From positions 62,001 to 126,000 of the forward strand of contig JBEWZL010000044.1 of NCBI GenBank assembly GCA_045837725.1: 64,000 nucleotides of DNA, read 5' to 3'. This document shows positions 1,105 to 52,104 of the stretch, piece after piece. How positions within the stretch are numbered: the stretch's first letter is position 1; each line of letters opens with the position of its first letter. The notes under the pieces were generated by a model. It did not search any database. It was not told the origin of the DNA and saw only the letters and a program-made list of their open reading frames with translations. This DNA is from Vermamoeba vermiformis. Its lineage: Eukaryota. The translations under genes were made by a program, and so were the position numbers.

Positions 1105-3331
1105 ATGAGCCTTAGAGAAATGTCCCTCGACATCTTGCATTATTTACTGCGGTTTCTAAATCCGCGAGATCTGTGCAAGATAAATCAATGCTCGCATCTG
1201 TGGAGAAATCTAACGGATCAGGAAGTCATATGGAAGTCTCTTACTATTGATAGATGGGAAATACAATTGAAGCAAGATCCGACTGAAATGGAAATTAAAT
1301 TAAAACGCGAGCAACAGGATGCAGATCAATCCAATATTAAAATATGGAAGAATTTATACAAGAGCAAATACCTACAATACAAAAAATACGAAAAGCTGCT
1401 AGATCAAGTCAGTGCGAATTTATTCGAGCGGATTAGGACCTCGTATTCAGTAGAGATGGGCGAATACATATGGGAAAAATTAGACACTGTTAATAGCATA
1501 AGGTAATTTATGTTTAGACTTATTTAGAAGAGACTTCTTCAGTGAAAGCAGGATCCGCTTAAATTTAGCGGATTCGGAGATTTCTATATACTACACAAGT
1601 TTTAAACAATATTAAATCATAATAACGAATCACGTAAATTGCAAAAAAGCATGCGCTAGCGCATTTTTGTGGTTGACGGAAGCACGATCTTGATTACAAT
1701 TAGCTTTAAATGATTATAAACACAGTTTTAGTATTATAAGCACGCTAAACTTATATATACATGTATTCTTTTGCTCATATTTTTCGTTTAGATCCAAGCC
1801 GATTCACAATGGTTCGAATCAACAATCTGCAGACATGAAAGCCGATCCAAGCCCCGTAGAGATCTGGAAAGGCGTGCCTGCAAATGAATATTTTGCGCGT
1901 CAAACGTATACTCATTCTACGGTCTATTTAACCAAGATGCTTTTTGGTGTCCCGTATGCAGATGTGATCAAAATAATCGAACAAGTCGAAGAAAGACATC
2001 AATGGGACCAACAATTACTGCAAGGTAAGCAATACATTATTTGAGCTATTTAAATCATTATTACTCTGATTTACGTCGCTTTTATTGCGGGCGAATCCGG
2101 TTCGCACCATTTTTAGATTTCTTTCCAGATAAAGAATTATCCCGTATAATATTGCAACTTTATATATAGCACATGTGCATATTATTTACGACCCTACAAT
2201 ACTACAAGTAATTACTGAAACAAAAGTTTTTCGAAAGCAATGTGAGCACTACATCCAGCTCACCGCTGCAAATTCTCGCTATTTAATGTGCCCGAAGAAT
2301 ATACTTTCGATTGATTTACGTATACCTATCGGCATAACGTTGTTCCTCGATTACTAAATCGAAAACTTTTGACATTTGGTCATATTCCAGATCTGCACCG
2401 ATTGTTGTTGAGCTTAAATTACAGATATATTGCATAAATAACAGTACGTCGTCGAGTAATCCATGAGTCTGTTGTAAAACGGTCCTTCGGAATAGATCTG
2501 GTTGACACGTGTCATCCTCAGATATTTCGAACCAATAATTGACACGTGTCAAACATAAACAGAATTCCATTTATTCATAACGCTTACAAAAATCCAGCAA
2601 TTTAAAAGAACTGTTGAGGTTTTCAGTTTAAAATACTAACGTGCTCTTTTTCAGGCTGGACTTTGAAGCGCTTAGATCGTCGCACGGACATTGTGTACAT
2701 GTTATTCGAGAGCATGGAACTGTTGTTGCTGCGCCAAAGACACGAGCGCGTCAGAACTGATGGACGCCGCGTATCAGTGTTCGGACAAATCACGCCCAAA
2801 GACGACGAGCTCGATGACGATGTGAAGCAAGCAGTGAATGACAACAGAAAGGCGTACTTTGACGAAGAAGATATTGATGGCTTGACCCGGATCAAGGAAC
2901 AACAGGGGTCTGGCTGGTGCATCGAAGAAGTAGATCCAGCGCAGAATACAGTTCGTGTAAGTACCGTGACGGCTATAATACGTTCCTTAACAAAATTATG
3001 CAATACATTGCTTATCTTTTGTTGGATCTGGTCGGAAAGTTCGCGATCGGATCCAGATCTAGTGCCTTCGAAGGCACTTTAGACAATTTATACTTCAACA
3101 AATTATCCATATACGCGTGTTATAAACAGTTCAATTGACCAGACGAAATTCTCACATGACGTATTTTAGATCTCGTATCAAGTGCGCACACCGCCAGAGA
3201 AAGCGTGGGAAACGAATGTGTTGTTCATGGCACAAGCGACAGCACGAGCAGCGTGTTTGCCGGGACTTGAAGAGTACTATCACACCACATACGTCCACAA
3301 GAAAACGAAGCAAGAGACTACAAGCAAATAG
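1105..3331 (+). CDS. F-box + START/SRPBCC-like domain protein (4 exons)
   Basis: N-terminal F-box (LREMSLDILHYLLRFLNPRDLCKINQCSHLWR). In-phase GT-AG joins at about 1503-1791, 2024-2655 and 2958-3170 link START-like segments ERHQWDQQL, RLDRRTDIVY and GSGWCIEEVD..TVR/ISYQ. Stop TAG at 3329-3331. Confidence 0.7.
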
Positions 3332-4002
3332 ACACAAACGAAGCGAACTGAATTGATGAAAATTACTCGTGCCAGTCATCATTGATTTACGTTCGTTTGC
3401 ACACAACCTGATGATGGCACAGTTTTCAGCGTTTGCGCGCTTAGTCGAGTTACCATCAGCGGCGTGTTGGAGATGCAGAAACAACAGGACGATAAATACC
3501 ACGAATCACTTTTCACGTCAATACTTCAGGACAAGTACATTGTAAAAATAAAGTACTTTCCCATGAGCTGCAAACAAGAGTCTGAGTGGAACAAAAATCC
3601 GTTTCTTATCGAGACAGAACGCGTTCTTGAAAGCGCTACGCCACATTCAATAGTTTCGGTCGTGTTGAAGATAGTACGCTCGCGTCAAATGTTTCTCGAT
3701 TCTGTCACATTTTCCGTGAGCTGAATGTGAACAAGTTGATGGATGTTGTAATTACACATCAAACGTTGTGCTTGTCTTTGATCCGAATGTGTTTAATATA
3801 CTTTATATACACTAAATTACAATTGTTATTTACAGTTATTTACATCAATAATGATAATATTCGTTGTAAGTTGTCTTATTATAATATCTATAGCGAAACC
3901 GAAATTTCTAACCTGGATGTGGATCAGACCATAAGAATTCAGGTCTGTCACTTCTAATAGCCCTCACAAATATGAAGACTATCCATATTAATAGCAGATA
4001 TT

Positions 4003-5501: not shown

Positions 5502-6829
5502 TTAGCAACCCAAGCAAGGCCTTCCACATTTGCGTAAGTTTGCCTCATGGAAGCTGAAGCGATCTACTTCGGCGATGAAGGCATAATTATCTGCATTGCT
5601 TTCCGTGCACGCGCCTCTCGGAAATAACATATCGTTAATTATACGGATCTTGCGTCCCAAACTCCATATTGCAAGGTTAACATCTTCGTTGAAGTATACT
5701 TTAAGCCAGCCTATGCGACTAGTTAATAATAATACTTGGTTGGATCCATTTTAGTAGATTCACGAATTTTAAATTTTCTAAAGATTTGATGGCACGTCAA
5801 TCTCGCTGTAAAATTTACTGCAACGCGGAAATATAACCCGCTTAGTATCTTAATTTACCGATTAAAGATCAATTTAAGTTCATTTTAAACGGATTTGACC
5901 CAGCAGCTTGGTATAGCCCAGTATCTTGTTAAATGCATGTTATTTACCTTGCTTATGCATTGCCACGAGATAACGAGCTACTCCAGCATGTAGCACATAA
6001 AATTGGCCATTAGGATACGGCGGATACACGGGCATTAATTTTTTGTATTCCGGATCTGCATTCTTGCCTGTGCCCAAAACACTGCTCTCAAAGTGTAATC
6101 TTCCCCATACGAAAAGTTTATCACCTTGCGTGCGGGTCATATTTAAAGCCACTACAAAACCAAAAATCAGATCAGATGTACGAGATCTCAGTAACCCCAA
6201 AAAGAAGTAAAATAAGTCAATTTCAATTTTATGCTATTAATATTAATTGAACCACGCGCGAACGGTTTGATAGCCAAAATAAAAGCAGATGCGCTTACCA
6301 GGATAAAATTTGTCCACGTGTAGCCAAATATCGTCATCAATTTTAATAATTAAATCGCAATTTTCCACGTTCTCCAAGATCCAAGTAAAAGCATTCAGTA
6401 CCTGCACGGAATAATCAAAAATTAATTGATTGAATAAATAAAAAAATAATTTGATTATTTGGTTGGCTTAGTTACCTTGTAATTTAAGAAAGAATATGCA
6501 TCCGTCATATTTAATTTCACTATATCATTGTATGTGGTCATTTCATGTTTAATTAAGTCCGGATTCGTTACATCTGGATCATCTGCCAAAAAGAACAATA
6601 GACGGCTAGCTTCAAGCTTATCAGCTCGAGTTTTCCACGATTCACGTATAGCCATTCGTTTATCATAATTTGTGGGCTTAGATAACACCATAAAGAAGAT
6701 ATTCTTTTGTTTTGAGGTCTCATCCAAATCCAAATCTGTTGCGTCACCATCGTTGCTTGTCCATACCAATAGCAAATCTACCAAAAATAGGCATAATATA
6801 AATAACGCTATTTGTCGCCCTCTGTTCAT
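5502..6829 (-). CDS. GT31 family beta-1,3-glycosyltransferase, copy 1
   Basis: Type II TM anchor, RMAIRESW, YNDIVKLNMTDAY, KIDDDIW (DxD), YPPYPNGQFYVL, NEDVNLAIW; 4 exons, intact frame. Confidence 0.88.
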
Positions 6830-6901
6830 GACTTGGGCACCACAAACAAAAACGGATGATTCTCGTGTCAAACGATTCTCGTAACATGTTGTTCGTTTAG
6901 C

Positions 6902-8123
6902 TTAGCACCTGCAAGGGTTCTCGCATCGCTTCCAATTGTATTCGAATTTTTGCACTTGCTCCTTATTGCGGCTGATGAAGCCGTAGTTCCGTTTCGATGC
7001 CCCTGAACACGCATCTTTAGGAATTTTGTTGTCATGAATAGCTTTTATCTTGCGTCCCCACATCCATATGCCCATATTGGTGTCTTCATTAAAGAAAAGT
7101 CTCAGCCAGCCTAAAGCGTCAAAAGTTAAACGGAGATCTAAGAAGACCCAAAAATGGCAAGTCGGGTAATTTCAGTCTTTGTAATATACTAGTATTTACC
7201 TTGTTTATGCATTGCAACGAGATATCGAGCAGTACCTCCATGCAAAACGTAGAATGGTCCGTTAGGGTAAAGAGGGTACGTCTCTAGGAGCTTTCGATAC
7301 TCGAGATCTGCGTTCTTGCCCTTTATTGCCACCCAAGCCGAGTAATGAATGAACCCCCATATAAAATGCTCTTCATAGTGGTTGTCGATTAAATTAACGG
7401 CTGCTGTAATAATAACAAACGACAGATTAGAATTTTGATCCATGAAATAACAAATTTGCGTAACTTGCTCGGTATAGCAAGATTATAATATTGTTAATGA
7501 ATGGATAAATTTTCGAGGGTATTCAGTTTTTAACGAGAAAGTTTCCGGATGTAACATGAACGAAACATTACCTGGGTAAAACGTGTCCACATTTAGCCAC
7601 ACATCATCGTCAATCTTGACGACCATATTATAATCTTTGATATTATCCGCAAGCCAAGTCAATGAATTGATCACCTATTTAAATTCAAACGACGTTAACA
7701 ACAATCGGAAAATTGTTTCATTACTCAATATACCTTGTAATTCAATAGCGAGTACTTCTCTGTCATATTTAGTACAACTACGTCATTATATGTAGCTATT
7801 TCATCCTTAATCCTTTCTGGACTTTTCACGTCAGCGTCATCTGCAGCCACAAAGAAAAATACTCGGCAATCTGGAAGCTTATCTACGTTTGATTTCCATG
7901 TATTTCGAATTGTAGTACGTTTATCATAATTCGTATGCTTCGATATGACCATGAACACGATTCTGGTTCGGTTCGAAACGATTGGAGTAAGGGATGCTGC
8001 AGGTGCATCTACATCCGCAACTGCAGTCTTTACATTTGCTTCTTCTTTGACCAATAGTATGACGATTATATTGGTTATAAATAGTCCAATAAGATACAAC
8101 ACTATTAATCGACCTCTGTTCAT
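6902..8123 (-). CDS. GT31 family glycosyltransferase, copy 2
   Basis: RTTIRNTW, KIDDDVW, YPLYPNGPFYVL, NEDTNMGIW; same intron positions as copy 1; last exon ends CENPCRC*. Confidence 0.88.
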
Positions 8124-8468
8124 CGTCAACGAAGTCCAAAAAAATAAAATTCCGGCGGAGTTACCAACAATTCACCATCAATTGTGTGATACGCCGTTTG
8201 TCCAAATCGGGGTGAAGCACATATCAGAGTATAGCTGAATGTCTTCACTGTCAGTCTTTGGAAGCGCGTTTCAGTCGCTAATTTGTAACAGATTAAACGA
8301 CGTTTTATTCCAGCCCGGCAAATCCCTTTGAGGCTCATTAAGTTGTGATTTCGTTTTTGAGCCTTTGGTTTGTACCTTTCTTTACCAACGCCTGCGTCGA
8401 AAGCGATCGACGGTTGAGGCTCCACGGACGGTAGAATATTTTTCTTCCCCTCCCTTAGTTGTAATACA

Positions 8469-9682
8469 CTAGAGATGGCAGCTGCAAGGATTTTGGCACC
8501 GTTTCCAACCCGATTCATAAACATGAAATTCACGTTGGTTTGCCAAAAAGCCGTAGTTGTCCTTCGTTTTGTCCGAACACCGTACTCGCGGGATTTTGAG
8601 GTCGTCAATCGCTTTGATTTTGCGCCCCCACGTCCATATGCCCATATTAGTATCTTCGTTGTGGAATAACCGAAGCCAACCTAATGATGCAAAGCTTTAG
8701 CTCGATCCCAAAAAAGATCTCATCAGATCTGGTATCTACGAGTAATTTTTTACCTTGTTTGTGCATTGCTACGAGATATCGAGCAGTATCTCCGTGCAAA
8801 ACGTAGAATGGCCCATTAGGATACGGCGGGTACGTCTCAATGAGTGTTCGATACTCGGGATCTGCGTTCTTGCCAGTTGATGTTATCCAAGCGCCTTGAT
8901 GAATAATTCCCCACAGATATTGTTCATCTTTTTGCTGTTGCATTAATGTTGAGGCCACTACAAAAAATATTAATTTGAGACCTTGTCGTGAACGTAAAGC
9001 TTGAAAATTTAATTTTAGGGCATTTTTTCTAATTAATTTAGATATTATTAGGTCAAATTAATCGTTCAATCGCAGAAAAAATTCGGTTGTAACGTTACAA
9101 AATCGTACCAGGGTAAAACAGATCCACATTCAGCCAAACATCATCGTCAATTTTAACGACCATATCATATTTTTTGATATTATAAGCGATCCAAGTTAGA
9201 GCATTCACGACCTAAATAAAATAAATTTTTTAATATTTTTTTTAACCGAACTAATTATTGTACCGTACCTTGTGATTCAATAGATCGTACTTCTCTGCCA
9301 TATTTAGTACAACTACGTCATTATACGTAGATATTTCATCTTTAATCTTTTCTGGACTTTTCACGTCTGCGTCATCTGCAGCCACAAAGAAAAATACTCT
9401 ACAATCATGAAGCTTATCCACCCTTGATTTCCACGTATCTCGAATATAGTTTCGTCTATCATAATTAGTATGCTTTGATATGACCATGAACACTATTTTG
9501 GTTCCGTTGTGAGGCTCTTCTACGACGCTCACAGGCAGCAGCGCATCCGAATCCGAATCTACTTCTGTTTTCGTCTCTTCAATTTCTTCGTCATTCGGTT
9601 TAGTGGAAGGCACTACTATTAATATATCAGCTATTAATAAGCCTAAGAGAAAAAACAATAATATACGATGTTTGTTCTGCAT
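8469..9682 (-). CDS. GT31 family glycosyltransferase, copy 3
   Basis: RNYIRDTW, KIDDDVW, YPPYPNGPFYVL, NEDTNMGIW; ends CQNPCSCHL*. Confidence 0.88.
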
Positions 9683-10145
9683 GCCTACAAAAAAAAATAA
9701 TCTAAAAATTTGTACCGGCAATTTTTAAATTCCAAAAAATAGCGATATAATTAACGCCTTACTAATATTTTAATATAGGCAATGAGGTTCCTTTATTAAA
9801 TTATTACCTCAACGAAAAACAAATCGCAGGCTTACTTCGCTGATCGCGATCGGATGCTTCTTAAACGCGTTTTAACTTAAAAGAGTCCTAATCGCGTTTG
9901 ATAATATTACTTTAAAGGCCCGCTCAGAGAAGTTGAGGGCACTTAGCAGCAATTACCATTTTGGTTAGTTAGATCGTTGCTAGCGCCGTTTAAACGCCAT
10001 CGCCGAGTCTAAAATCGAGACTAGTCCAATAAATATATTAGTCTTATACCTTACAAAGTAGATTTTGTACTTACTGCGCCATGGCTAGTTTCTACATCAG
10101 TTGGATCCGGATTTGTTGTTGTCCACCACATCACTGGAGACTCGT

Positions 10146-11472
10146 TTAAATACTCAAACAAGCCATGCAAGGGTTGCCACATTTGCGCCAATTGTCTTCG
10201 TACCATCTGAAGCGCACTTTATCAGAAAAGAAGCCGTAGTGCTCGCCAGTAGTGGTCGAACAAGATCCGGTTGGAAACAAGTTATCGTGGATCTGACGTA
10301 TCTTGCGACCCCAAGTCCATATGCCAACGTTAACGTCTTCATTGAAGAAGTATTTCACCCATCCTATCGTAAGAACAGAATTAGTGGAAGTCTTGCGCGG
10401 ATTTACTTTTCTTTTTAAAGAACTTGAGTGCCTGGATCTGACACTCGATGGTGGGCTTAATAGAATAAAGTATATACATATACTTAATGTTATTAAGAAT
10501 GATCCAAGTTTAACGTTAGGTTTTGAATAGCAGAAGCAGATGTGGTCGTTTCGAAAAATGTCTAAAAGCAGACCGTAATTGATCTTCATATTTACCTTGT
10601 TTATGCAACGACACGATCCATCGCGCAGTATTGGCATGAAGAGCGTACAGAGGTCCGTTAGGATAGGGCGGATAATTGGCGAACAGTTTTCGGTACTCGT
10701 GATCTGCGTTCTTGCCAGTTACTTGCACGTCGACACCTCGATGCAAAAATCCCCATATGAACCATTCTTGGCCTTGTGCGTAGATCAGATCGGACGCCGC
10801 TGTTAAACAAAGGTTAGATTCGGATCTAAAAGTTAGATTTGAAAAACCATTTAAAGATCCTACAATATTATTGAAAGTATAGTAGTATTATTTTCTATTA
10901 TATTATTATTATTATATTTAAGCTATAGATTAAGGTTTAAAGGCCTAGCAGGCGAGTTTGACTGACCCGGATAAAATCTGTCCACATTAAGCCAAACATC
11001 ATCGTCGACTTTAACAATTAAATCATAATATCCGACATTGTCTTCGATCCAATTTAGCGCATTCACGACCTGGATCCAATAATTAATACAAAATTGGAAA
11101 ATTAATAAAAATTACTCTTATTTGCATGTGGTTATTTACCTTATATTTAAGTAGTGCATAATTTTCTGTCATATTTAACATCACTATATCGTCATATTTC
11201 TTTAATTCTGATTTTAAAGCGGATGTGTCTGAGTCAGGATCGTCCGTGGCCAAAAAGAAAAATACATGGCTCGCCTCGTGCTTATCGACTCTAATTTTCC
11301 ATGTTTCTCGTATTGCCATGCGCCGTTCATAATTACTGTGCTTTGAAATAACCATAAAGACGATCTTGGGATCTTTCGCTACATCCACGTCAGTCTTTGC
11401 TATCCATATGATTAAAAAATCCGCTATACATAGAAATAATGCAAATAATAAAATCTGCCGAGTTCTGTTCAT
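10146..11472 (-). CDS. GT31 family glycosyltransferase, copy 4
   Basis: RMAIRETW, KVDDDVW, YPPYPNGPLYAL, NEDVNVGIW; ends CGNPCMACLSI*. Confidence 0.88.
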
Positions 11473-11580
11473 GATCAGCAAGCAGAAAGAAAAATCCTCG
11501 TTATTTCTCTTTCTTAACTATTTGCAGCACAGAACAAATTATAGTTAAGTAATTTAATTATTATTATTATAACTCGTATG

Positions 11581-12699
11581 TGTTACCGCCACTTCGAAAC
11601 TGCGAAACCTGTCAACAAAACGGCCAAATCATTCCAGCCGGATCGAAACCGCACTACCACAAACAAAATTTTCTTATTTTGAAAGTCTGAGGAGAAAATA
11701 TAATAGTAATCAAGTGCACTAAAGGATGGCGATAATTATAATTGACTAGTGAAAGTTGTAAGTGAGATCTTTTTAGCAAAAAATTTAATTTCAAGATCTA
11801 GCTCTCCAACCATAGGAGAGCCAAATTGCTTCGTGCTCTGATTATAAATAATATATTCGAAATATAGTATACCTAAATATCATTGTTTTGAGGTGCCCAT
11901 CCGAAAATCCAGCTCCATCTGATTTTCAAACCGAATCTTCACTTCCTAATGTAATTTGCGAATATTTTTAGTGGAATCCAATGTGCTTGTATGTTTTTTA
12001 AATATTGGTGTGGTAAATTCATCTAAAAAATCAAGGCTCGCTGCCATCGTTTGATCCCATCCGGTACCGCGATCGATTGGTCAATTCAACTCTGTCAGAA
12101 AACAACCAAATGAAACCATTTTTTCAATTTTGTACAGTCCTACTATCATACTAATTATATATGGCATTACATTGCATAAACTTTCCGTTTTTTGTTAATT
12201 CAAAACTCAATCCTGATATTTGGCGCACTTTTGAAAAGATCAAATTTAATTTTAAATAGTGTTGAGTTAAGGGCCGATTTAGATATGGGTATATAAAATG
12301 CAGCTTGTAGAATATGAATATTAATTTTTTATCATTACTGGAGGGCTTGAAAGCCCGGCACGGTCGTGTCAATCCAAGCACTAATTCGAAAATCATTTGG
12401 AAAATCTCCAATTTAATTTTAAACAACGCATCCAGTATCTAAATCTACAGGGACACGTTGAATTGGCAGTAAATTGAGTATATAAAAAAATGCGTGACAG
12501 ATTTAAGATCGGACAATGGATGGACTTTGCTTACGAGTTATTTCACTGCCAGTGGACGATTGTCTTCTCTTAATATCAATTGTGCGAAATTGATCAATAT
12601 TCGAATAATTTTTTTGCTTGTGGTTGTGCGGTTTCGATCTGGCTGAAATGATCTTGCCGTTTTGTTGACAGGTTTCGCAGTTTCGAAGTGGCGGTAACA
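11581..12699. mobile_element. Non-autonomous DNA transposon (MITE-like) with about 88-bp TIRs, TGT...ACA ends and a 5-bp TSD; possibly Ginger2/TDD class
   Basis: 11581-11668 is the reverse complement of 12612-12699 (outer 44 bp identical, 6 mismatches in the inner 44). GTATG is duplicated at 11576-11580 and 12700-12704. The interior is AT-rich with no transposase ORF. Confidence 0.9.
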
Positions 12700-12853
12700 G
12701 TATGGTATCATACTCGACCGACCATGGTTGAAAAGAACAGTTCAGATTTTCAAATAACGGAAACTGACATTTTTGGGGGCGCCAAATTTCATTACTTCAT
12801 TCTTACAACAATAGTCAGCTGATGCTATCATAATCTACTTTTAATACAACGCA

Positions 12854-15594
12854 ATGGACTACTCAAAATTAAAACAACCAACTTCGCGTGACAAAAAGCC
12901 GATCGTGTTGTTTTACAACGGCACCTTTGCGCCTATTCACGATGGTAATTGATTTCGTGTAATACAAATGCTATATTTGTCAATGTTATAAGTATAATAA
13001 TGTCAACGGTCGATGCCAAATCGAATTTCATATTCGATTCTATTTTAATTTTATTTGAAATTCGAATTTAGAGCCGACATTGCCGGTCAATAATAACACT
13101 CCAAATATTATTTGCAAATTAATAATTCTAAATTGCTAAACTATTTTGCTAGGCCATTTGGCAGCAATCGACTCAGCGTTTACAGCGTTAGAAGATGCAG
13201 GCTATGAAATACTAGGCGCATATTTATCTCCAGCTCACGGCTGCTATAGTGAAGCTAAACTAAAAGAAAATTACATTCCTTCTCATCATCGAATGGAGAT
13301 GTGTTTGTTAGCGTGCGAAGAACGACCATGGCTTAACGTAGATACTTGGGAAATGATGCAAGAAGCATTTACTTCATTTGTCAACGCCATGCCTGAATTT
13401 TACAAGCGGTTAAAGCAATACGTGCCGTTCTTAAAGAATTTGGACTTTTACGTAAGTTTTCTGGCACCCAATGCTTTATTTATATTCAACCTATCAATAT
13501 ATTATACTCTGGTGCTTATCAAGTTTAGCAAAGGCTTCGCTAATTTTTTGTTGCGGATGCAGATCCAATTTTGCTGACGATATATTTTTTGCTTAAGTCA
13601 AATCCTATTGTGTTAATATTGTATTTTATAGGTCGGATGGGTCGTAGGCGTAGACTCATATCACCCAGTCATGTTCAAAAGAATTCCTAAGTACTTGGAC
13701 ATTTGCATAAGAAACAGATCTGGCTTCGATGAAAAAATTGAAAGCTTCAAGCAAGGTACGATAGATCGAGCACAATATGATCGTTATATAACGTGTTATT
13801 ATAGAGCCAGCGGTTGCAGAAGCCATTGCCAATTCACTGTTTGTTGACGCGGAAATTTTGGACGTTTCATCCACTGCTATTCGCAAAGCTGTGCAGACCG
13901 GAGAAAGTCTTGAAAGTATGTGGTACTTATATACTATATAGTATCCGGCACCTATATTAATAATATGTTATAAGAGTTTTATAAGAACTTGCCTAAGGTC
14001 GCCGAATACATCGTCAAGAACGACCTATGGAAGCCTGCAAAACCTTTGCAATTTCGAAGAATTGAACCTGCTAAAGTCGACTCGGGCATCATAGACTTAG
14101 AATCACAATTAACTCCTCAAAATTTAACAATTGCATTGAGCGCTAGTGGTTGGCTGGGCAAGGATGAAAAAATTGTGAAATTTCAAAAGAATCCGTTAGG
14201 CGAGATGTTCGGATGCAGCGGATCTTTGTATCTCCTCGACGAGATTGAATACGAGCCAGAAAACACGGAAAAATTGAAAAAGTTCGTATTTAAATTTGGC
14301 GGCAAAGCAGCTGGCTTTGGGAAATTTGAACTCGAGGAAAAATTCTTCACAAAATTATCCGTTGACGACCCTCTTTTCCCGAAATGTCTAGCGGCTTTCA
14401 AGAGCAATACGAAGAAGGCATTTACTATGGAGTTCTTGGACAAATACACCTGCTTCGATATGCGCGATGGAATTGAAACGCCTTTGCTCTTTGCGGCTAT
14501 TCGTGAACTGGTACGTGAATGACACTTTGACACTTTGACACTTTGAACATTACTTCATGTATATGACACGTGTCACTGCAGTTTCTTGTCGCTATGAAAA
14601 AATGACAGATGTCATTTCGTGACTTTGGATACTTAACTGACTATTCGTAGGCGAGAATGCACGCAATGTACGCTGGTCAAAAACTCGAAGAAGTGCAAAG
14701 TCTTGGTAGTCCAGCCCTGCGCAACTGGATGGTAGAGCGATTGGTGGGCTACGGCATGAAATTCACAAAAGACGCCGTGGAACACGGGTACGGCCCCGAA
14801 TGCTTTGTACGTACCATCATATTGCCTTATATGGTAATATCTAACGATTGCTATCCAGATTGAAATGCACCATGACAAATTAGAGCAAGAAGTCAACGCG
14901 TACATTGACCGATTAGAAGCATCGAAATTTCAATCGATATTGCATCTAGACTCGTGGATCCACAATTGGATGTTCCGCGAAGATCTAATAGAGGACTACA
15001 GTACGTTATAATAGTCTATCATATGAACTTATCTTTAACGCTTGAGCCTTAGAAACACTATCGGATCTGTCCCTCGAAGAAATTTCAATGCAAATTGGAC
15101 ATCCAAGACACGTTACACGAGGAAAAGTAGCGTTAATAGATTGGGAATATACTTCTAAAGGTAAAAACCTGAGTGTTTGCAACAATTTTTTTCGTTCATG
15201 AACGAACGTACTTAACTTTCCTTTTTTAGGCAATGGCCTCGTTGATTATGGATTCTTTTTCTGGACGAGTGCTATCAATGCGCATGAGATTGAAATGCCC
15301 GCAGCGTTGTTTTATTACACGCAGCTGTGTCACTACGGGATCACCAATTACACGTACAACTCGTTTTTGAAAGATTATAGGGACGCGAAATTATATACTT
15401 TTCATCGCTTAATATCGACTTTTGGACATTGTATGGGTCCTGCTTATAACGCAGTCGAACATTGGAAAAATATTCGGGTCAACATGTTGCAATTGTTGCA
15501 CGATCACGTGCCTGAAAAATACAAGAATAATAATAATAATAACGTTAAAGTTGCTAATAATAAGAAAACGAAACGTGACTGCGTAGTAATGTAA
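12854..15594 (+). CDS. NMNAT-like (HIGH-motif) nucleotidyltransferase fused to an APH/choline/ecdysteroid-kinase-like phosphotransferase
   Basis: FYNGTFAPIHDGH (split by intron 12945-13152), YLSP, HRMEMCLLA, VDTWE, VSSTAIR and VAEYIVKNDLW are NMNAT motifs. They are followed by FVFK, MEFL, LARMHA, LHLDSWIHNWMF (HxDxxxxN) and IDWE. Confidence 0.85.
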
Positions 15595-15712: not shown

Positions 15713-18143
15713 TCACCAAATAAACGGCGAGTTGTGACTAAATTTGGCATCGGACATCAACACATCGATCACGTGCCATAGTTTTCGCTTCTTAAGCTCT
15801 TTCAATAGTGATCTGCTCTTCAGCACAACTTCGGTCTTGTCCACCACGTTCATGAACAGCTTCACAATTTCATGATTGCCGCTCGCACAAGCTGCCAAAA
15901 ATGCGCTGAAAACTTTCTTCTTATTGTCTCTGACCTGCGGATAAGACAGCAATTGTTTCACGACTTGAATACCGTTCGGATCTGAGCCAGCAATTTTCAA
16001 CGCGTCACTGCGACAAGATGCTGGATCAATTCCAAGATGATCGACAAAGAGTTTGACAGATGACACGTGTCCAAATTGAGCTGCTGTCTCGAATGCCTTT
16101 GCCATAATTTTCGAGTCAGGGTTGAGGTGTTCAGTGAACCGTTTGTCACGTGCCAATAACAAAATCATCTCCTCGTTGTTGTTTTCTACGGCGATATTAA
16201 GTGGGTTGTCGATCGAATCATCGTACAGCGTCGGATGAGGAAATTTCAGGAGAAATTTCGCGATGTCGATGTTGTTCAGTTTGACGGCCATTCTCAGCGC
16301 GAAGTTATTTTGCTCGTTGATGTCGATCACGTGCTTCTTATTCGAGTTAAGAATTTCTTTGACAACTTGAGGTCTGTTGGCAATGACTGCGTAACTGAGA
16401 ATAGGAAACGTATCGATACCATCAATCATTCGAGATTTATCCCTGATTTGGACTTTGAGATCTATTTTGGGATGTTCTATTAATATCTTCACCATCTCTG
16501 AATTGTTGCAAAGTATCGCTTGTTTGAGCGCGTTGTTGTTGTTTGCTGAAGGTTTGATGATCGGAGAATTTCGGAGAATTAGTTTGACGAACTCGGTGTC
16601 GCCGCTCTCGATGAAATCTAGCAATAGATTATCGTGCCTAATGTTCACAGTGTCGAGCAATAGCTTTTTAAGTTCTTCGGGTTTGAGCCTTGGTCCCTGG
16701 GAGAAAGTATTAACCAACGAAAGTACATACTTTGAACGACTTAAACTTACGCCTAAATGCAACGGTCGACTCCCCATTTTGCCTATATAAAGTAAGTGTC
16801 GGTTAGATTATAGTTTTATTATTGCAATCATACTGAGCTTACTCTGAGTATAGTAAGTTTGGAGCAAAGTGAGCACTTTCAAGCGTCCTTGTTTCCGCAA
16901 ATCGCTGAAGAAATGCCTCGGTTCAATCTCGTTGGCGAGATTAATGTTCATTTGCGTGATTAATATACTAATTACTTGACAATCTTCTCGATCGGATCTG
17001 CAACAATCTGCAAAGATGTTCAAAATATCTCCGCGGAAGTACGTCACGTTGGGGTACTGGAACAGAAATTTCGCTAGCGCCGCGTGACCGTTCAAGCAAG
17101 CAATTCTGAGAATTTTGTTTTTTTCGTGCGCCGGCTCAATGTCGAATTTTTCAACCAGGGTCTTAATTATTCCGATGTGTCCTTCGTGGGCGGCTAACTC
17201 CGCGACTTCGTATACTGTCTCAATACTATACTTGAAGTGCCTAATAAGTTCTTTCAACATGTCCGTACTTCCAGACTTTGCAGCAATTCTGAGCAGTTTG
17301 ATCGATTCTTCGTCTTCCGCCAATGTTTCTATTTTTGGATTCACTGGTTTCTTGTACGTATAAGTACTTATTGCCATCTTACTGGCACTAGTAGTATATA
17401 AATCATCGTCTATTTTCTTCGTTACTAAGGGCATTGGAATTAAAATTTCCTCCGACTTGCTGCATCGGATCAAGGGTTGTTGAGTTGGCTTGTTAAGAAG
17501 GTACCGGACTAACTCGATGTTATTATTCTTTACTGCGTATCGTAGAGTCTTCTTATGAGTATCTTTAAGGTCTATTAAGTAGGTGTGTTCTTCTATCAAT
17601 AGCTTCGCAATGGCAGTTTGATTTTGTTTAGCCGCGTAGTCGATGATATTGTAGTTCTTAATGTTATTTCCATCCTCCACGTCCCATATAGGCAGTGTGC
17701 TATTATATTTGGGGTGTTCTATCAACAGTTGAAGAATTTCAATATTTCCGTTGCCGATCGCTTCGCGAATGATTTTGTTTCTCTTAGCTGATGGGTTGAC
17801 CGTCGTAGATTTGTTCAAAATATTCTCCACTACGGCTAAATTGTTATATTTGACGTATTTATAGAGAAGATCGTTGTGGTTGTAACGATGTGGATTTGAG
17901 ATCATCAGATCCAGGACGAGTTGGTGATAAGGTTTGTTCAGAAAGATGAACTTCGTGGCTACTAGCGGCAAAATAACGAGCTTTACAACCTCTGGAGGCA
18001 ACTCTGATATATTAAACGAGGGTAGCTAAACGGCAGATTAATAAATCACAAATGGAATTATTCCGCCAATTAATTACCTGCTTCGGATTGCGAGAAAGAA
18101 CCAAAGAACTACTTGCCCTATTTAATTCTACTTGTTTTTTCAT
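15713..18143 (-). CDS. Ankyrin-repeat protein with a putative N-terminal F-box; the two track ORFs are one gene
   Basis: Intron GTAAGC..CTAAC..TAG (about 16783-16842) joins the 397-aa and 354-aa ORFs in frame (..TQ-S-KMGSR). First exon MKKQVELNRASS.. splices to LPSFNISELPPEVVKLVIL (F-box-like). Many ankyrin repeats (e.g. AAHEGHIGIIKTL, ACLNGHAALAKFL). Confidence 0.8.
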
Positions 18144-39000: not shown

Positions 39001-39971
39001 TTAAGCAGTGGGGGTGGGAACTACGCAAGTGTTAGCGGCGTTACGGACACATCCGCCAGGGCAAGGGTTGGTGGCGTTGAATTGCCAGCCAAAGTATTGA
39101 TCGTAGTAAGCAGTGTCGGAGAAGCTGATCAAAGTGGTAGCAGGAAGGACGTTACCATCAACAGACTTCTTGTCGATTTCCAAAGAAGAGACCATGATCT
39201 GAGTGAATCCCAACTCGGTCAAACGAGTGATGCTAGTGGCATAGATGTTTTCACCGAGACCAGCCCAGCGAGTAGCAGACATGCACATGGGGCAAGATTC
39301 ACCAGTAGTGTACAAAGAGAGTTCAGACCAGACAGCCTTGTTGCGGCCAGCACCAGGACCAACGGTGTTTTGGAACAAAGCAGCGCATCTAAATAAAATA
39401 ATATTAGTATTTGAATCATGAATTCGCTTTTCCCTAAAGTTTAAAATCAAGCTCAACAAATTTTGTGAGTTTGGATCGAGTGTCATATGTTTTTCCGTCT
39501 TAAGAGTCTTTGCAATGATTTAGCACAAAATCTTTTTTGAAACAACACACAAAGCAGTAAATAATAAGAAGAAAATAAATCGCTAAATTCAACTTACTCT
39601 CTGATGAGACGGATCTCAGCGTGATCAGTAGGATCGTAAGTGCTGCGAATACCAGTGGTAGCGCAGAGAAGAGTATCAGTGGTTCTGTTGACGATAACGG
39701 CACCAAATCCGTCACGAGGGCAAGGACCTTGAGCAGTGAAGCGAGTGGACATGGCGTAGTTCATCCAGTAGATGCGACGAGCGGGAGGAACACCGTTGAT
39801 AGTTTCAACACCAGTGAAGGTGTGGAAGTAATCGGGGTTGTGGTGGTGAGGAGGACGAGGAGGACGACCGTGACCGTGGCCGTGTTCGTGATCTCCACCT
39901 TGGCCACAAGCAACGACCAAAGTGCATCCGATCAGAGCGAAAACAGCGAGAAGAGCAAGCTTGTTGTTCAT
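39001..39971 (-). CDS. Secreted cytidine/guanine deaminase-fold (CDA/TadA-like) Zn enzyme
   Basis: Signal peptide MNNKLALLAVFALIGCTLVVA; FGAVIV, DPTDHAEI and LYTTGESCPMCMSA; one intron (about 39390-39597) joins in frame. Confidence 0.88.
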
Positions 39972-41848
39972 CTTGTATGTTATTATTGTTATGAAAAGTT
40001 GATTGAAATAAACTGTCGTGCCTCTTTGCTATTTATCCTTTTTGCAATCGCGAGCCCTGATCGATATCACAGACTAATTTTTATTGTGAATGGACAGCGG
40101 AGAAACTAATTTTAGCGACGATCTATGACATTCGGGGTGTCTCGGAGATAAATGCCGAGGGTCTCTTCGCTGAATAGACAATAAGGTATTGATTATACCC
40201 GCATTGATTGCTCTTAATTTCAAAGGTATACCGAAAAAGTATATGTGACAGTTGAAGACACGCAGGAGACCTCCGAAGGTCGCAAATTCGTTTTTAAAGT
40301 TTATCAGTATTATATATCGAACACGTAGCTCTACTTTCCGAGCAAATTGTTCGAAAAAATTGATTTTCACGAGCAGAAAAAGCGGAATGGAATTCAACGC
40401 GGAAGATTGAACCGTTTCTTATTTTTTATGACATTAATAACGTCATATAGCCAAACAATAGTTACCGTAAAATTTGGTCTTTGAATCACCACTTTTGTGA
40501 ATTACAAAACGTCATAGAATAGCTGATACGTTCTACCAAATTTCTAACTCCCGACGCTGATTGACGTTGACTTTGCGCCCAAACATTTATTTTTGAGGAG
40601 CACCACAAATGAAGACGGAAAACTAGTGCTTAGGGAGGGCTTCTTTAATATTTTAATTAATTTTCGCTGGTGTGACTAAAGCGGTTGCACCCAAAATTGA
40701 TTGTCTTTCCTTAAATTCAATTTTTTTAAGCAAAATAGACAGAAAAATCGCGTTTTTGCGCTCGATCTGACTCGTGCACCTTAAATTGATTAATGAGCAA
40801 GCACCAACAACAACGCTTGATATAATATAGTGCCGCAGTGCTGAGCTGTGGCCATGTATCACGTTGTTTTTGTTTGTTTCAGCGTAACTAATCAAAACGG
40901 TGACGGGCACTTCCCAGGGTGCCTATTGGTCAGAAATTTGGCAGAAATTAAATAGTAGTGGTGATTACTGCTGTCATTTTGATTGGCAGGAGTAGCATCT
41001 TTTTACACTAACTATTGTTTGGCTATATGTTAGCATGAATAAATATTATGCCAAGACACAAAGACTTTTTGATTTGTTCGCTGGCAAGCACAAATTGTCG
41101 GGGCCGAAGCGCAGATCCCTTGTTTCGCTTGATCTGCACTTCTTACCACTGACATTTGATATATTCATACTTTAGGGAAATTTATATCGTATCAAGTGCG
41201 GAGAAAGCTTTTCGGGACCGAACGTTTAGCGTAATAAATCAATGGATCCAAATTAAACCGTGGCGCTTTTTGATCCAACCGACGTATCAATCGGGAAAAT
41301 AGGAGTTTGAAGTATAATATTATGATTTAACGAAAAGAATAAGAAATTATCAATACTACACACAATTGAGATTCTCCTTCAGCGGAGAATTGAGGGCTTT
41401 CGGAGCCCTGGAAATAGGCGCATTAAATCTTATTATTGGATGTACATGAGCATCCACAATATTATTGCAACTGAGCAAGCGGGCTGGAATCAGATAATCA
41501 TGATCCGATCAAAATCCAACGGGATTGGATAAAAAATCAATCAAATTGAAAAATCGTGTGGTAAATAATATAATTTTACTTTGATTTAATACGCCCTGGT
41601 AGGCATTAATGTAACTACTATCTACCGGTCACGTACCTTACTTCGCGCCACAATTTCAAATGACAGTTGCAACAGTCCAATGAATAATACGTAATACCAA
41701 TGATATAAAGTACTTTATGAGCTTATGCTGAGTTGTTACTTTCCGCTGGTGTTGTTGTTCTGCTGTTGCAGATTTGATTTTGTCCGCGTAATAAAATACT
41801 CAAAACCATACGTCCTTCAGTACGCTTCATAGCTTAATTAATATTAAA

Positions 41849-43476: not shown

Positions 43477-46400
43477 ATGCAGATGCGCAGCGCTGCTTTT
43501 TTATTTATTTTAACATTCTTATTCTGCGCACTACAAGTCTCAGCAGAACCTGCTTGGGCGTGGATAGAAGGAGATATTACGGTACCTAATCTTCCTTCCC
43601 TCGTTGGCTCTTCTGTTGTACAAAGCGCAAACAAGAGAGATCTGTGGTTGTTTGGCGGATTAGGTACGAGCTTGCGCGAAAAAATATTTAAAATCTACAA
43701 TTAAGACAGAACATCTCGCAGAAAAAGTTATAAATAGTATGGCCATACTTTAAACGGTAATAAAATTATTCGCTATTTCTAACTTTTTTTGCGCTAAGGG
43801 CCAAACGAGCAGGATGGCAATAATTCCACCTTATTATGGAAGCTAGATGTGAAAAATAATTATACATGGGTGCCTATCACTACTGCAGGCGAAGATCCAA
43901 CTCTTCGAACTCAATCTCTTGTGTGGGTTGACACAAACGATAATTTTTTCGTTTATGGCGGTTATTTGCAAGGCAATCCTTACCAAATAGGCTCAGACTT
44001 ATGGATATATAATATAACAGCTAATGAATGGCGATTATTAAGAAAAGAATCAGCTGTGGTGCGAGGAGATCTTGGATTTGGAAACTCGACTACAACTCCT
44101 GGCCCTAGAGCGGCCTCTTGCACTTGGTTCGAAAATGACGAGTTGTGGTTATATGGAGGAGCAGTAGCATATGTTGACACGAGAAGATCAGCAGCGGATG
44201 TTTGGAAATACTCGATCACATCTGACACCTGGACTTGGACTTCAGGACAGATAGGAGAGAATGTACGGCCGTTGAACGAGGTTGACCTTCGTGTACCATC
44301 TAGTACGGCATTTCCAGGCTCATTTAACGAAGGTGGTTGTACTAAAGATATGAACGGAAACGTGTGGTAAGATCAGATCGAAATTTTATTTTTTTGGTTT
44401 TTTATTTATACAATAATTTACAATTATTAGGTTTTATGGATCAACACCCGACACAACCGTCGAATCAAATCAAATTTGGAAATTCAATCTGGCTAGTTTG
44501 AATTGGACTTTTGTGGATGGGACTTGTATTGTGCAAAATGGAAGTTGGGTGCAAGGACGATATGGCTGGCAAAGCACTATTGGCGAGTACAATGGGCTGA
44601 ATTTCCCGCCATATTCATTTTCAATCACGCTGGTCTATTCCGGCAACAACATGATCACGCTATTTACCAGACAGTCTGCAATATGGAGCTACAACATCAC
44701 TAGTAATCAATGGGCTACTATAATACCTTCGGGTATTAGAATATACGAAGATTACAACGTCACTGCAAGTCGTTCGGAATTTCAAGTGCGATCTGCATCC
44801 AACAACCCTGGCGCAAGACTTCAATATGGATATCCGCAAACATTAGGAAGCCTTTGGATTGTACGTGGAAACGCGACTGCTGACGGAGATCTCCCTGCAG
44901 ATACCTTCGTCTACTCAATTGATATTTGTGGCTCGGATCTGGCTCCGAGTTGTAGCCCAAACTCAGCGTGCGTCGATAAGATTGGCTACGCAGAGTGCCG
45001 ATGCGATGAAGGATATGAAAGTGATGGAGTCACGTGCCAGAAGATCGTAATTCCGTCACCTGAAGATTCTTTCTGGCCCGCCAATAATGAAGGGCTTGGC
45101 TCATCTCCCCTCGCGATATCTCGCAACGCGGAGCTCGTTAAAAAAGTCATCCCCGGCGTTCTCGTGCCTGTTGCAGTACTGGCGGTGGCTATTCCGTTTG
45201 CTGTTGTTTGCCTCAAGCGTCGCAAAAGTGCTGCCAAGAAGGATGAAAAGAGCTACGAAGACCGCAGCTCTAGTGGCACTACGGTTAGTTTGATTAATTC
45301 TCAATCTCAATAGACCACATGGACTAATGGATTTGATAGTACTTGAATATGAGCGGAGTTACTATGACCAACACGACTTCGGGATCTACCAACAATTTGG
45401 ACTTGCCCGTCTCGAATTTCACTCAAAGCCAAAGTAGCTCAGAGGCAGATAAGATGAATATACCTTACTCTGAATTGAAGATTCGTCACGAGATTGGTGC
45501 GGGAGCGTACGGCAAAGTGTTCATCGGTGAATGGCAAATGACAACAGTGGCCATGAAGATTAGTGGCTACACTTCATCACAAGAGTTCTTGCACGAGGCT
45601 GCCCTATTGACGTAAGTTTTGAATGGCAAAGTTGGGTGACGTCACAGCAATGGCTAACTCGTTTTTGAAGCAATCTTCAGCCACATCCAAACGTCGTTCA
45701 AATTATTGGTGTGTCAAAGTCAACCGACGGCGTAAACACAATTATGATTATGGAGTACTGTGACGGAGGTACGCTACTCGATATTCACATCAATCACGTG
45801 TTCGCTCAACATCATTTTTTTTTTGCCTATTTAGGAAGTCTCGACAAAGTACTGTCAAAGTCTAAGGTGCCATTCGCGGCAAAACTGCATTACTTGTCGG
45901 GCATTGCTAAGGGCGTGTATCACCTGCACAAAAACAATATTATTCATCGTGACTTGGCTGCTCGCAATATTTTATTGTCTCGGGGTGAGCCCAAGATATC
46001 AGTAAGTAATACATTTTCCTATATAATAATTTTGCGAATAAAAATTAATTTTTTTATTAGGACTTTGGTTTGTCTCGTAAAGTAGAAGATCCGACGAACT
46101 CTGGCAAGACTAAATCAACTGTGGGTCCCTTACGATGGATGGTACTATATTATCGCTATTATAGCTAAAAATTAGCGAGTTAATGATTTAAAATACACAG
46201 GCGCCCGAATCTATTGCAACGACTGAATATAGCGTTAAATCGGATGCTTGGAGCTTTGGAATACTTTGCTGGGAAGTTCTCGCTGAAGAAGAGCCGTATG
46301 ATAAGTCACAAGAGGATCAATTGGATCTCGCTATTGCAATTAGGTACGAAAAGACTTGGAATTCTTTTTAAGTATTAAAAATCTAAGTTTTAATATGAAT

Positions 46401-46850: not shown

Positions 46851-48407
46851 ATGGATAAGAAAATCATTCTAGTGTGCGCTTTACTCATTTTTACTTTGTC
46901 TTTCGTGTCCTGCTTGCATCAGCCGTTCACGAAAGGAAATCTGTTGGCGCTCAAGAAAAACGGTAAGATCTGCTGTATTTTTTAGTATAGCTTTGTACTT
47001 ATTCGTATTATAGTTACTCCTATTCGTGCAAATAGTCCTTGTGCTGCAGGAGGGTTCGTCGAATTTACGCCGGATGGTCAGATCGTGCAAGAGGTGCTTC
47101 TTCCGACCAACGCGACGTAAGCTATACCTTTCACTTATAGTGGTTATTATTCTTTTGCGTGAGCTCTGAGTAAAAAGATTTCTGGACTAAAAAGGCAATT
47201 TAATTTTTAACCTTTACTCCAACCTTAAAGTTTGTTTATGTTGATAAAATCTTTGTAGCAAGGTTTACGCCTATATTAATATACTATATTAACAACAACC
47301 CTTAGGAATGAGCATCAAGCTTGCCTGCTCTTCACTGGCGATTACAATAGTCGACATACTATTACTACGGATGGGCTACGTGTGATCATCCCTTGCTGCA
47401 ATGTGAATGAAGACCCTGCTATATCTGACTCATTGGTTAGCTTTGCAATTGTGCACGGCGATGGTCGCTTCGAAACTACTCCGATCTTGAACAATACAAT
47501 TAATCAAGTGCCCACTAACTCCGTTATGGATGGCGATGATATTTGGTATAGCTTTGGAGGGTCTAGCGGAGCTATATTTTACGCGCCAGCTAATTCCACC
47601 GTCACAACTCCGATCTTCACCGGACCGATCTTCGCGCTTCAGATCCACGAGGGAAATCTCTTCGCGTCCAACTTTGAAGGCTTTCCAGGCTCGCTTGTTC
47701 AAGTCGGGATTGGTCTGCCCAAAGAACTCACGACAGATAGAGTGGATTTATTGGAACACAACGACGTCAACAGCTTTTTGTTCCTTGGCGAGCACGTGGT
47801 TTTGAGTCTCTATCCTGACGGCTTGAAGATTTACAACGTGACGTCTGGAGAGCTGGTTCTTGGCTCTGGCGGCACTCGCGAGATAGTCCAATCTGTTCCA
47901 CTGTTTGAGCACAACACAGTCATCGCGCATGTCGCGGGGTTTGGTAGCCAAACGCCTGCAATCTACTCATTCCCTTGGAACGAAACTAACAACATTGGCA
48001 CATTCGACACGGCCACGATCTTGCTGAACACTACGGCCGATGGATTCTATTACTACAGTCCTACATTCGTGCCCATCAACAGCTGTGAGGACGGCAAGAA
48101 AAACAACGACGAGACTGACGTGGACTGTGGTGGTTCATTCTGCTCGCAGAGGTGTGACGGAGGCAAACAATGCTTGACTGACAACGACTGCGTGACAAGT
48201 GGTTGCACGAACAACGTTTGTGACCTGCCTCCAACACCTCCTGTTGCCGAGCCAATTGCTGCTGAACCAAATACTCCTATTACTGACGCACCGAGTGGCG
48301 CTTCGACTAGCCCGTCAAGCAGACCTCGGGCTAATTTAACTTCGTCGGCGAGTTTGTTCGCAGCCTCCTTGGCTTCAATCGCTTTGATTTCCTTAATGTT
48401 AGTTTAG
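46851..48407 (+). CDS. Secreted beta-rich protein, paralogue A, with a Cys-rich DETDVDCGG module and a GPI-type C-terminus
   Basis: Signal peptide, PFTKGNLLALK, VEFTPDGQIVQEV; CEDGKKNNDETDVDCGG; P/S/T stalk and hydrophobic tail. Confidence 0.8.
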
Positions 48408-51813: not shown

Positions 51814-52104
51814 GCAACGAGTGCACTTGCCGTATTTAGCCGGCTCATTTCCGATCGTTCAAATAAAAATTTCGAGATAATTTGGAGTTCGTCCAGGAGC
51901 GCTTTTACTGCTTACTATAAGCCAAGGTACCGGTTAGTATAGGTCTTTAGTGTTCGAGAGTAAAGGGCGCTGGGCAATCTATGCAAATTAACAAGTGTGA
52001 ATTGAAGGAGATCTGCTTTCGAACGCATTAACGTTAATTATTGGCAGCTGCCATAAATTATTTGTTTGGAAGTATTTTTTACCTACGATTATTGTTTGAA
52101 CAAC

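Follow-up and report, generated by a model that had tools for sequence, protein, structure and literature searches.

Fusion of a small-molecule kinase to an adenylyltransferase of the HxGH class is a recurring route to cofactors and activated metabolites, serving the formation of NAD (NadR), FAD (RibF) and ADP-heptose (HldE). NadR converts nicotinamide riboside (NR) to nicotinamide mononucleotide (NMN) and thence to NAD within one protein (PMC7221760), and a bacterial FAD synthetase is described in which phosphorylation of riboflavin is coupled to adenylylation of FMN on the same polypeptide (PMC2573891). The gene considered here, located at 12854-15594 (+) of a 64,000-nucleotide stretch of DNA from Vermamoeba vermiformis (assembly GCA_045837725.1, contig JBEWZL010000044.1, positions 62,001 to 126,000; the whole stretch is termed the window), would deploy the same fusion logic in a eukaryote, with a kinase of a different superfamily and a probable lipid anchor. 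The N-terminal ~225 amino acids (aa) of its predicted product are NMNAT/NaMNAT-like, an HxGH nucleotidyltransferase, and the C-terminal ~360 aa constitute a small-molecule kinase of the EcKL/APH/choline-kinase type. The fusion gene is real, and in a close relative spliced RNA crosses the transferase-kinase junction. That these resemblances are not due to chance is indicated by the match of exon 2 to solved NMNATs (E 1.7e-8), that of the spliced model to a eukaryotic transcript product termed P0002 (E 4e-83), and the synonymous nature of 33 of the 39 listed coding differences from the close relative.

Like NadR, the predicted protein carries an NMNAT-type HxGH adenylyltransferase N-terminal to a kinase in a single chain, and hence in the same domain order. 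In NadR the kinase belongs to the P-loop (Walker A) enzymes, and an N-terminal helix-turn-helix is present in many members of the family. By way of contrast, the window kinase is of the EcKL/APH type, no P-loop motif GxxxxGK(S/T) was found by eye in the window translation, the transferase groups with the eukaryotic NMNATs, the chain ends in a CaaX box, and a Pfam scan of the window exons returned no helix-turn-helix. Because the defining P-loop kinase is missing, the fusion protein lies outside the NadR family. HldE and RibF likewise fuse a kinase to an HxGH-class adenylyltransferase and perform consecutive steps; their kinases, respectively ribokinase-like and a riboflavin-kinase barrel, belong to bacterial enzymes with other substrates. 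The preliminary description of this DNA likewise noted that the NadR and FAD-synthetase fusions use kinase folds other than that of the window kinase.

Phosphorylation by a kinase and subsequent activation of the phosphate ester by a nucleotidyltransferase also characterise the Kennedy-pathway pair of choline kinase and CCT, as well as LicA/LicC and AmgK/MurU. AmgK, LicA and the choline kinases are APH-type enzymes, and LicC is GlmU-like. The window transferase nevertheless differs from its Kennedy-pathway counterpart in being NMNAT-like rather than CCT-like, and the choline-kinase likeness of the kinase N-lobe concerns the fold only. AmgK/MurU and the other pairs checked are moreover separate proteins, and MurU is GlmU-like rather than of the HxGH class in the sections of PMC5371407 that deal with it. 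No mention of a Treponema LicCA fusion turned up in the papers searched for it. A search of the literature, InterPro architectures and supplementary tables aside, likewise brought to light no account of an NMNAT-type transferase joined to a kinase of the EcKL/APH type. The only paper found to contain both 'NMNAT' and 'aminoglycoside phosphotransferase' was a cyanophage genome report, and a phylogenomic paper on insect EcKL proteins made no mention of 'fused', 'fusion' or 'nucleotidyl'.

The fusion gene and its transcript

The window has a G+C content of 35-46% and is eukaryotic DNA with short GT-AG introns. Open frames between 12854 and 15594 were read and then connected at canonical splice sites, yielding a nine-exon model on the + strand with an open reading frame (ORF) of 1932 nt encoding 643 aa plus a TAA stop codon. 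All eight introns (49-208 nt) are GT..AG, and a further TAA lies in frame 12 nt 5' of the ATG. The model was compared with contigs from a sequencing run, X6, of a close relative, and with the related proteins (P0002 and others) described below; the resultant features are as follows.

12854-12944 (+), exon 1: aa 1-30 plus one base; start codon and 5' portion of the GTFAPIHDGH ATP-binding motif; X6 joint 12943->13152 (cut +1)
13153-13451 (+), exon 2: aa 31-130; NMNAT-like core with SPAHGCY...HHRMEMC and VDTWE (13338-13352)
13632-13755 (+), exon 3: aa 131-171; contains GWVVGVDSYHPVMF, the counterpart of the NMNAT GADLL...W region; X6 joint; aligns with the starts of P0003, P0005, P0008 and P0010
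13805-13915 (+), exon 4: aa 172-208; VSSTAIRK (13864-13887), the ISSTxxR motif; X6 joints
13975-14510 (+), exon 5, the fusion exon: aa 209-387; last transferase helix (13992-14030), linker of ~27 aa (14031-14111), kinase N-lobe
14211-14231 (+), kinase N-lobe motif in exon 5: GCSGSLY
14283-14303 (+), kinase N-lobe motif in exon 5: FVFKFGG, with the beta-3 Lys
14328-14348 (+), kinase N-lobe motif in exon 5: ELEEKFF, with the helix-C Glu
14424-14438 (+), kinase N-lobe motif in exon 5: hinge TMEFL
14651-14806 (+), exon 6: aa 388-439; helical beginning of the kinase C-lobe; X6 joints; colinear with P0002
14859-15000 (+), exon 7: aa 440-486; catalytic loop HLDSWIHN (14943-14966), in P0002 HNDPWIHN
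15053-15160 (+), exon 8: aa 487-522; family-specific insert and metal-binding IDWE (15136-15147); X6 joints
15230-15594 (+), exon 9: aa 523-643 plus TAA; remaining C-lobe, Asn run, basic KKTKR (15562-15576), C-terminal CVVM (15580-15591)

The preliminary description had placed the last NMNAT helix and the kinase N-lobe in one exon, and concluded that the fusion did not depend on a guessed splice; both statements were borne out. Exon 5 contains the last transferase helix PKVAEYIVKNDLW (aa 215-227, 13992-14030) together with the kinase N-lobe in a single open frame, and the first X6 record (891 nt, 12823-14209) runs from the 5' untranslated region through exons 1-4 and 235 nt into exon 5, thereby reaching the kinase part. 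A second record covers 14275-15456, and among the X6 pieces listed none spans 14209-14275, a gap inside exon 5. The X6 contigs (95-99% alike to the gene, from a relative ~96-97% identical to the window gene) omit all eight introns at the modelled coordinates; the RNA status of the run is a guess, but contigs without any of the eight can hardly be other than cDNA. Seven of the eight skips scored as GT..AG; that of intron 2 was placed at 13453->13635, two bases off and with one extra letter, as expected where the aligner slides over a GT found in the donor as well as in the first codon of exon 3 and encounters one substitution.

Of 50 differences between the window and X6, 40 were listed, 39 of them coding (33 synonymous and 6 non-synonymous) and scattered across both domains; as judged from these sequences, purifying selection acts on the fusion gene over its whole length. 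Three RNA sequencing (RNA-seq) runs carrying the species label of the window contributed 0, 1 and 3 reads to a 3.5-kb stretch and none to the fusion gene, which does not amount to a test. Reads from two such runs, X22 and X23, fall on an ankyrin gene (15793-15900) to which they are 95-99% alike, and then run into unlike sequence; the source of the same-species-labelled runs may be a diverged strain or a paralogue.

The N-terminal transferase domain

When exon 2 alone was compared with the sequences of the Protein Data Bank (PDB), 7 of the 11 matches at E<=1 were named NMNAT, with E values from 1.7e-8 to 8.7e-6, whereas bacterial NadD entries reached just E 0.17-0.33, and no CCT, ECT or TagD-kind/glycerol-3-phosphate cytidylyltransferase chain was present among the 11. 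The NCBIfam profile TIGR00482 matched the same exon over profile positions 13-94 of 194 (E 3.4e-8, 33.7 bits, a single-exon score to be read against a whole-domain cut-off of 112.45 bits), and in the relative P0003 the N-terminal part was matched by profile positions 98-191 (E 1.8e-6, 28.1 bits). PF01467 scored 21 bits (E 4.2e-4) on exon 2 alone, its cut-off being 21. The short exons 1 and 3 returned no PDB sequence matches.

The catalytic landmarks described earlier as intact were all present. In the transferase domain these are HDGH (aa 29-32), which is divided by intron 1 within GTFAPIHDGH (aa 23-32) across a joint supported by an X6 contig, and the SST of VSSTAIRK (aa 192-199), equivalent to an ISST.IR motif unchanged in five out of five relatives. 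P0003 aligns with residues 211-266 of human NMNAT1, from ISSTKIRRAL (DISSTKIRRAL) through the last helix. Overall, the eukaryotic NMNAT1-3 and Nma1-2 enzymes provide the best sequence matches to the N-terminal part, share GxFxPxHxGH, ISSTxxR and VDTWE with it, and in the case of human NMNAT1 end in a helix resembling the last transferase helix of the window. Canonical NMNATs differ, however, in having no kinase domain, as well as at the two sites considered below. From sequence comparison, the transferase domain is a descendant of NMNAT, closer to the NMNATs than to other HxGH transferases.

The C-terminal kinase domain and tail

Since the window kinase is divided over five exons, Pfam scores obtained exon by exon were low, the best being EcKL on exon 7 (E 0.025, 14.3 bits). 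More informative was P0002, a 435-aa product of a EukProt Trinity transcript that begins at the last transferase helix, continues uninterrupted as far as the C-terminus and exceeds the Pfam cut-offs for both EcKL (PF02958; 43.7 against 22 bits) and APH (PF01636; 36.3 against 23.2 bits), with no match to Choline_kinase (PF01633) at E<=1. The Atlas clusters nearest to P0002 are EcKL/APH families (358-419 aa). Alignment of P0002 with the spliced window model gave one high-scoring segment pair of 423 columns (37% identity, E 4e-83), on which the EcKL/APH assignment of the window kinase rests, and which also supports exons 5-9 of the model.

The domain shares with the EcKL/APH/choline-kinase superfamily the HxDxxxxN loop, metal-binding Asp, beta-3 Lys and helix-C Glu, and its modelled N-lobe is nearest in fold to choline kinases and APHs. 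Across the 11 sequences of alignment A1, conservation reaches at least 90% at the beta-3 Lys (K106 of exon 5) and at the helix-C Glu (E120 of exon 5), with an invariant Ser-Gly in the glycine-rich loop. HxDxWIHN and DWE, the kinase motifs that had also been reported as intact, occur in both sequences that extend into the C-lobe, those of the window (HLDSWIHN, aa 468-475; IDWE, aa 515-518) and P0002. Superfamily members differ in that they normally stand alone, and the window protein and P0002 both contain an insert of ~33 residues (window 14967-15135, aa 476-514) between the catalytic loop and IDWE, in which a GHPR motif is kept; this insert is presumably longer than those of other APH/EcKL enzymes.

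Exons 5 and 9 matched no solved structure by sequence below E 0.1, and a profile of alignment A4 found no significant match among PDB sequences. AlphaFold2 (AF2) modelling of window exon 5 from 11 rows gave a mean predicted local distance difference test score (pLDDT) of 71.4, rising to 84-95 in the N-lobe core. Foldseek searches with this model and with a model of P0002 returned no match at E<=0.001, the top rows being N-lobes of protein kinases. A VIA fold search with the exon-5 model against 48,161 chains, independent of Foldseek, yielded ten best matches that were without exception small-molecule kinases, with Z values of 8.7-6.8, a range rated middling; Z 7-8 is common as a best value, and differences within 1 count as ties. 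The ten comprised four choline kinases (Z 8.7, 8.0, 7.2 and 6.9), PsiK (7.7), a putative APH plus three named APHs (7.3-6.8) and a 25-hydroxysteroid kinase (7.1). The fold search supports the kinase class and not a particular substrate. The original description of the N-terminal part as NMNAT-like was upheld by the PDB and TIGR00482 matches, and that of the C-terminal part as EcKL/APH-like by Pfam, the Atlas clusters and the fold search.

A feature absent from that description is the end of the protein, KKTKRDCVVM, in which a basic stretch is followed by a CaaX-type box, CVVM, with Cys640 at position -4. P0002 ends in NCCVN, likewise with Cys at -4 after a Lys-rich stretch, and the Cys is thus kept in both of the C-termini available. 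The CaaX consensus consists of Cys at -4, two aliphatic residues and a terminal residue, and its combination with a basic stretch is found in farnesylated plasma-membrane proteins such as Ras. The tail is probably farnesylated, and would anchor the protein on the cytosolic face of a membrane. Within the NMNAT family, NMNAT2 is also lipid-anchored, in its case via palmitoylation, as stated in the pertinent section of PMC4239634.

Relatives and age of the fusion

An exhaustive HMMER search with exon 5 over 1.84 billion representatives (E<=0.001) retrieved 11 proteins, of which P0006, a 1073-aa repeat protein with seven short matching stretches, was set aside as spurious. In seven of the ten true relatives a single frame joins transferase residues to the kinase N-lobe. 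Four of these (P0003, P0005, P0008 and P0010) read from GWxxGxDSY by way of ISST into the N-lobe, whereas P0004 begins at ISST, and P0001 and P0002 begin at the last transferase helix. In the remaining three (P0007, P0009 and P0011) the ORF shows the kinase N-lobe alone. Identity to the window is 27-37%, apart from P0001 at 81%. Retention of the junction in seven of ten relatives indicates that the transferase-kinase fusion is old. Four of the relative ORFs begin exactly at the start of window exon 3, and seven finish at the 3' border of exon 5, give or take a few residues, which suggests that introns are conserved at these borders and that the relatives are therefore eukaryotic.

A full-length fused protein was not present in any library searched. 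Word-index searches for longer proteins returned none with exon 5, only P0002 itself with P0002, and with exon 2 only P0012, an 83%-identical fragment. No relatives were found in metagenome, viral or prokaryotic contigs, and P0002 was without a match in prokaryotic genomes. The ORF of P0002 is recorded as 'complete', its initial Met preceding by three residues the FY at the start of window exon 5; the transcript may either have kept the upstream intron or represent an isoform with the kinase alone and, from the transferase, just the last helix.

Two sets of candidates were rejected. Fourteen metagenome loci (alignment A2) matched query residues 3-104 only, the transferase half, and are ordinary NadD-like genes. 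A viral locus, L015, contains at 1175-3999 (+) of a 189.6-kb contig a 523-aa NAMPT-like gene directly followed by a 415-aa product that, by eye, joins a NadD-like adenylyltransferase to an NAD-synthetase-like domain (NadD-NadE); it has no kinase and is not a relative. The sequence of this pair suggests a phage module for NAD salvage or synthesis, unrelated to the fusion gene.

Proposed function and alternative explanations

By the mechanism proposed here, the kinase domain would use ATP to phosphorylate the hydroxyl of a small molecule, and the transferase domain would next attach AMP to the newly made phosphate. That the two domains might perform consecutive steps is suggested by the precedent of NadR, FAD synthetase and HldE, in each of which a kinase is joined to an HxGH transferase. 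The NMNAT descent of the transferase, together with its retained landmarks (VDTWE and an aromatic residue after GxDSY), would make nicotinamide or nicotinate riboside the most economical choice of substrate, and hence NR -> NMN -> NAD the leading candidate reaction; a membrane-held enzyme could thereby trap imported riboside. The preliminary description had proposed a two-step activating enzyme, of which the fusion, both family assignments and the intact motifs stand, sequential action on one substrate being drawn from precedent. We tentatively favour, at a likelihood well short of even, an enzyme that acts on nicotinamide or nicotinate riboside and would be the counterpart of NadR in a eukaryote, tethered to a membrane and built with a kinase of unrelated fold. 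Such an enzyme would constitute both a non-orthologous eukaryotic NR kinase and a membrane-tethered unit for NAD salvage. It would also offer one of very few functional handles on the EcKL-type kinases found beyond the insects, almost none of which has a known substrate.

Several observations weigh against a pyridine riboside as the substrate. The loop SPV.DAYKKKGL of canonical NMNATs, aligned as SPVNDAYKKKGL, reads SPAHGCYSEAKLKENY in the window, with a four-residue insertion, and the aromatic residue after GxDSY, a Trp following GADLL in the canonical enzymes, is Phe in a shorter loop, both in the window and in all four relatives that cover the site; with these two changes, the acceptor site may itself have changed. 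The NMN-binding roles of this loop, of VDTWE and of the aromatic residue are those that we take to be established for NMNATs. The structural neighbours of the kinase N-lobe are headed by choline kinases, with no ribose kinase in the lead. We know of no EcKL/APH-type kinase that phosphorylates a nucleoside 5'-OH, the known NR kinases being P-loop enzymes. The AF2 model of P0002 from a 12-row alignment was poor (pLDDT 52.3); a kinase-only form may exist in some species, given the start of P0002; and a canonical NMNAT or NR kinase may lie elsewhere in the genome, our view being that of the 64-kb window.

Some of these same observations would be accommodated if the steps were coupled, as above, with the substrate being a choline- or ethanolamine-like amino alcohol, a sugar, a sterol, or a hydrophobic metabolite or xenobiotic, converted to an ADP- or CDP-linked product by a re-tooled NMNAT-like domain. 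The altered NMN-binding loop is consistent with this, as are N-lobe matches that extend from choline kinases, PsiK and APHs to a 25-hydroxysteroid kinase, and a predicted lipid anchor that would suit a membrane-bound or hydrophobic substrate. EcKL, the best Pfam family of P0002, is tied to steroid and xenobiotic metabolism in the passages of PMC10859841 devoted to it, where the function of most members is given as unknown, and the AmgK/MurU system, as treated in part of PMC5371407, provides a precedent for salvage of an alcohol by a kinase and then a nucleotidyltransferase. However, the transferase is nearer to the NMNATs than to any other HxGH transferase, to the exclusion of CCT, ECT and glycerol-3-phosphate cytidylyltransferases from its 11 PDB matches; VDTWE and the aromatic residue after GxDSY are retained; and PF01633 is missing from the P0002 matches at E<=1. 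We hold a different alcohol to be a possibility of some substance, albeit on the unlikely side; the product would in that event be a new nucleotide-linked metabolite.

A further serious alternative, although one that we consider unlikely, is that the activities are independent, with an ordinary NMNAT making NAD and an EcKL-type kinase acting on unrelated molecules in detoxification or hormone-like metabolism, the two being fused for co-localisation or co-regulation only. Each domain does have its own complete catalytic motifs, EcKL-type kinases mostly stand alone (as in the 358-419 aa Atlas clusters), and both the three N-lobe-only relatives among the ten and the 'complete' ORF of P0002 from the last transferase helix would fit such an arrangement. 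Nevertheless, conservation of the junction in seven of ten relatives at 27-37% identity would be unexpected of an accidental fusion, the characterised kinase-HxGH fusions (NadR, FAD synthetase and HldE) do carry out consecutive steps, and the kinase-only ORFs may merely be cut by introns.

With respect to the product, an ADP- (or CDP-) conjugate of a hydrophobic or imported alcohol, made at the inner membrane face and serving as a new activated metabolite or signal in a eukaryotic lineage that has been poorly sampled, is in our estimation distinctly improbable, as is its NADP- or NAADP-type variant (NAADP, nicotinate adenine dinucleotide phosphate). A reversal of the order of the two steps, whereby the transferase would make NAD or nicotinate adenine dinucleotide and the kinase would phosphorylate that product to NADP or an NAADP-type messenger at the membrane, would be compatible with the transferase-first domain order, with the membrane anchor, and with a kinase of the APH type, which phosphorylates hydroxyls of sugars. 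We nonetheless judge it highly improbable: the Pfam, PDB and fold searches made gave no sequence or fold likeness to NAD kinases, and we know of no EcKL/APH-type NAD kinase. Finally, the earlier suggestion that the fusion enzyme could make an unusual activated donor for the products of the four head-to-head GT31 glycosyltransferase genes described below was not sustained and is scarcely credible, in that its evidence is adjacency alone (the nearest GT31 start lies 1381 bp from the fusion-gene ATG, across a divergent spacer of 1.38 kb), whereas GT31 enzymes use UDP-sugars made by a different transferase fold, ADP-heptose is the only HxGH-made sugar nucleotide known to us, and the predicted cytosolic lipid anchor is at variance with signal-anchor-like GT31 N-termini typical of lumenal enzymes.

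Neighbouring genes

The surroundings of the fusion gene are summarised below.

6455-11517 (-): four tandem GT31-type galactosyltransferase genes
11473-12853, 1381 bp: divergent spacer between the ATG (11472, minus strand) of the last GT31 gene and the fusion-gene ATG
15713-18025 (-): side-by-side pair of ankyrin-repeat genes that lack introns (frames of 364 and 405 aa)
39001-40028 (-): two neighbouring frames bearing zinc motifs like those of cytidine/deoxycytidylate deaminases
43798-46085 (+) and 52057-54247 (+): receptor-like genes, paralogues of each other
47280-48407, 49408-50193 and 50866-51813 (+): three tandem paralogues
61606-62980 (-): fatty-acid desaturase exons and cytochrome b5 domain

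The first exons of the GT31 genes match PF01762 at E 8.7e-7 to 1.7e-8, each gene opens with a hydrophobic, signal-anchor-like stretch, and the four look like a young tandem array. The ankyrin-repeat genes (Ank_2, E 7e-25 and 9e-19) lie directly 3' of the fusion gene in convergent orientation. One of the two deaminase-like frames matches PF00383 (E 1.5e-4, under the cut-off).

Both receptor-like genes combine a Kelch beta-propeller, an EGF-like module, a hydrophobic stretch with a basic stop-transfer sequence, and protein-kinase exons, a Pfam kinase match (PK_Tyr_Ser-Thr, E 3e-19) being obtained in the first copy only. The three tandem paralogues are Cys-poor, with a Ser/Thr/Pro-rich tail and a hydrophobic C-terminus, from which features they look secreted or glycosylphosphatidylinositol-anchored; the two copies scanned matched no Pfam family at E<=0.001. 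At 61606-62980, fatty-acid desaturase exons (PF00487, E 5.6e-6 on a single exon, under the cut-off) precede a cytochrome b5 domain at the C-terminus (E 6.4e-17), and from its sequence the locus looks like a desaturase-cytochrome b5 fusion gene.

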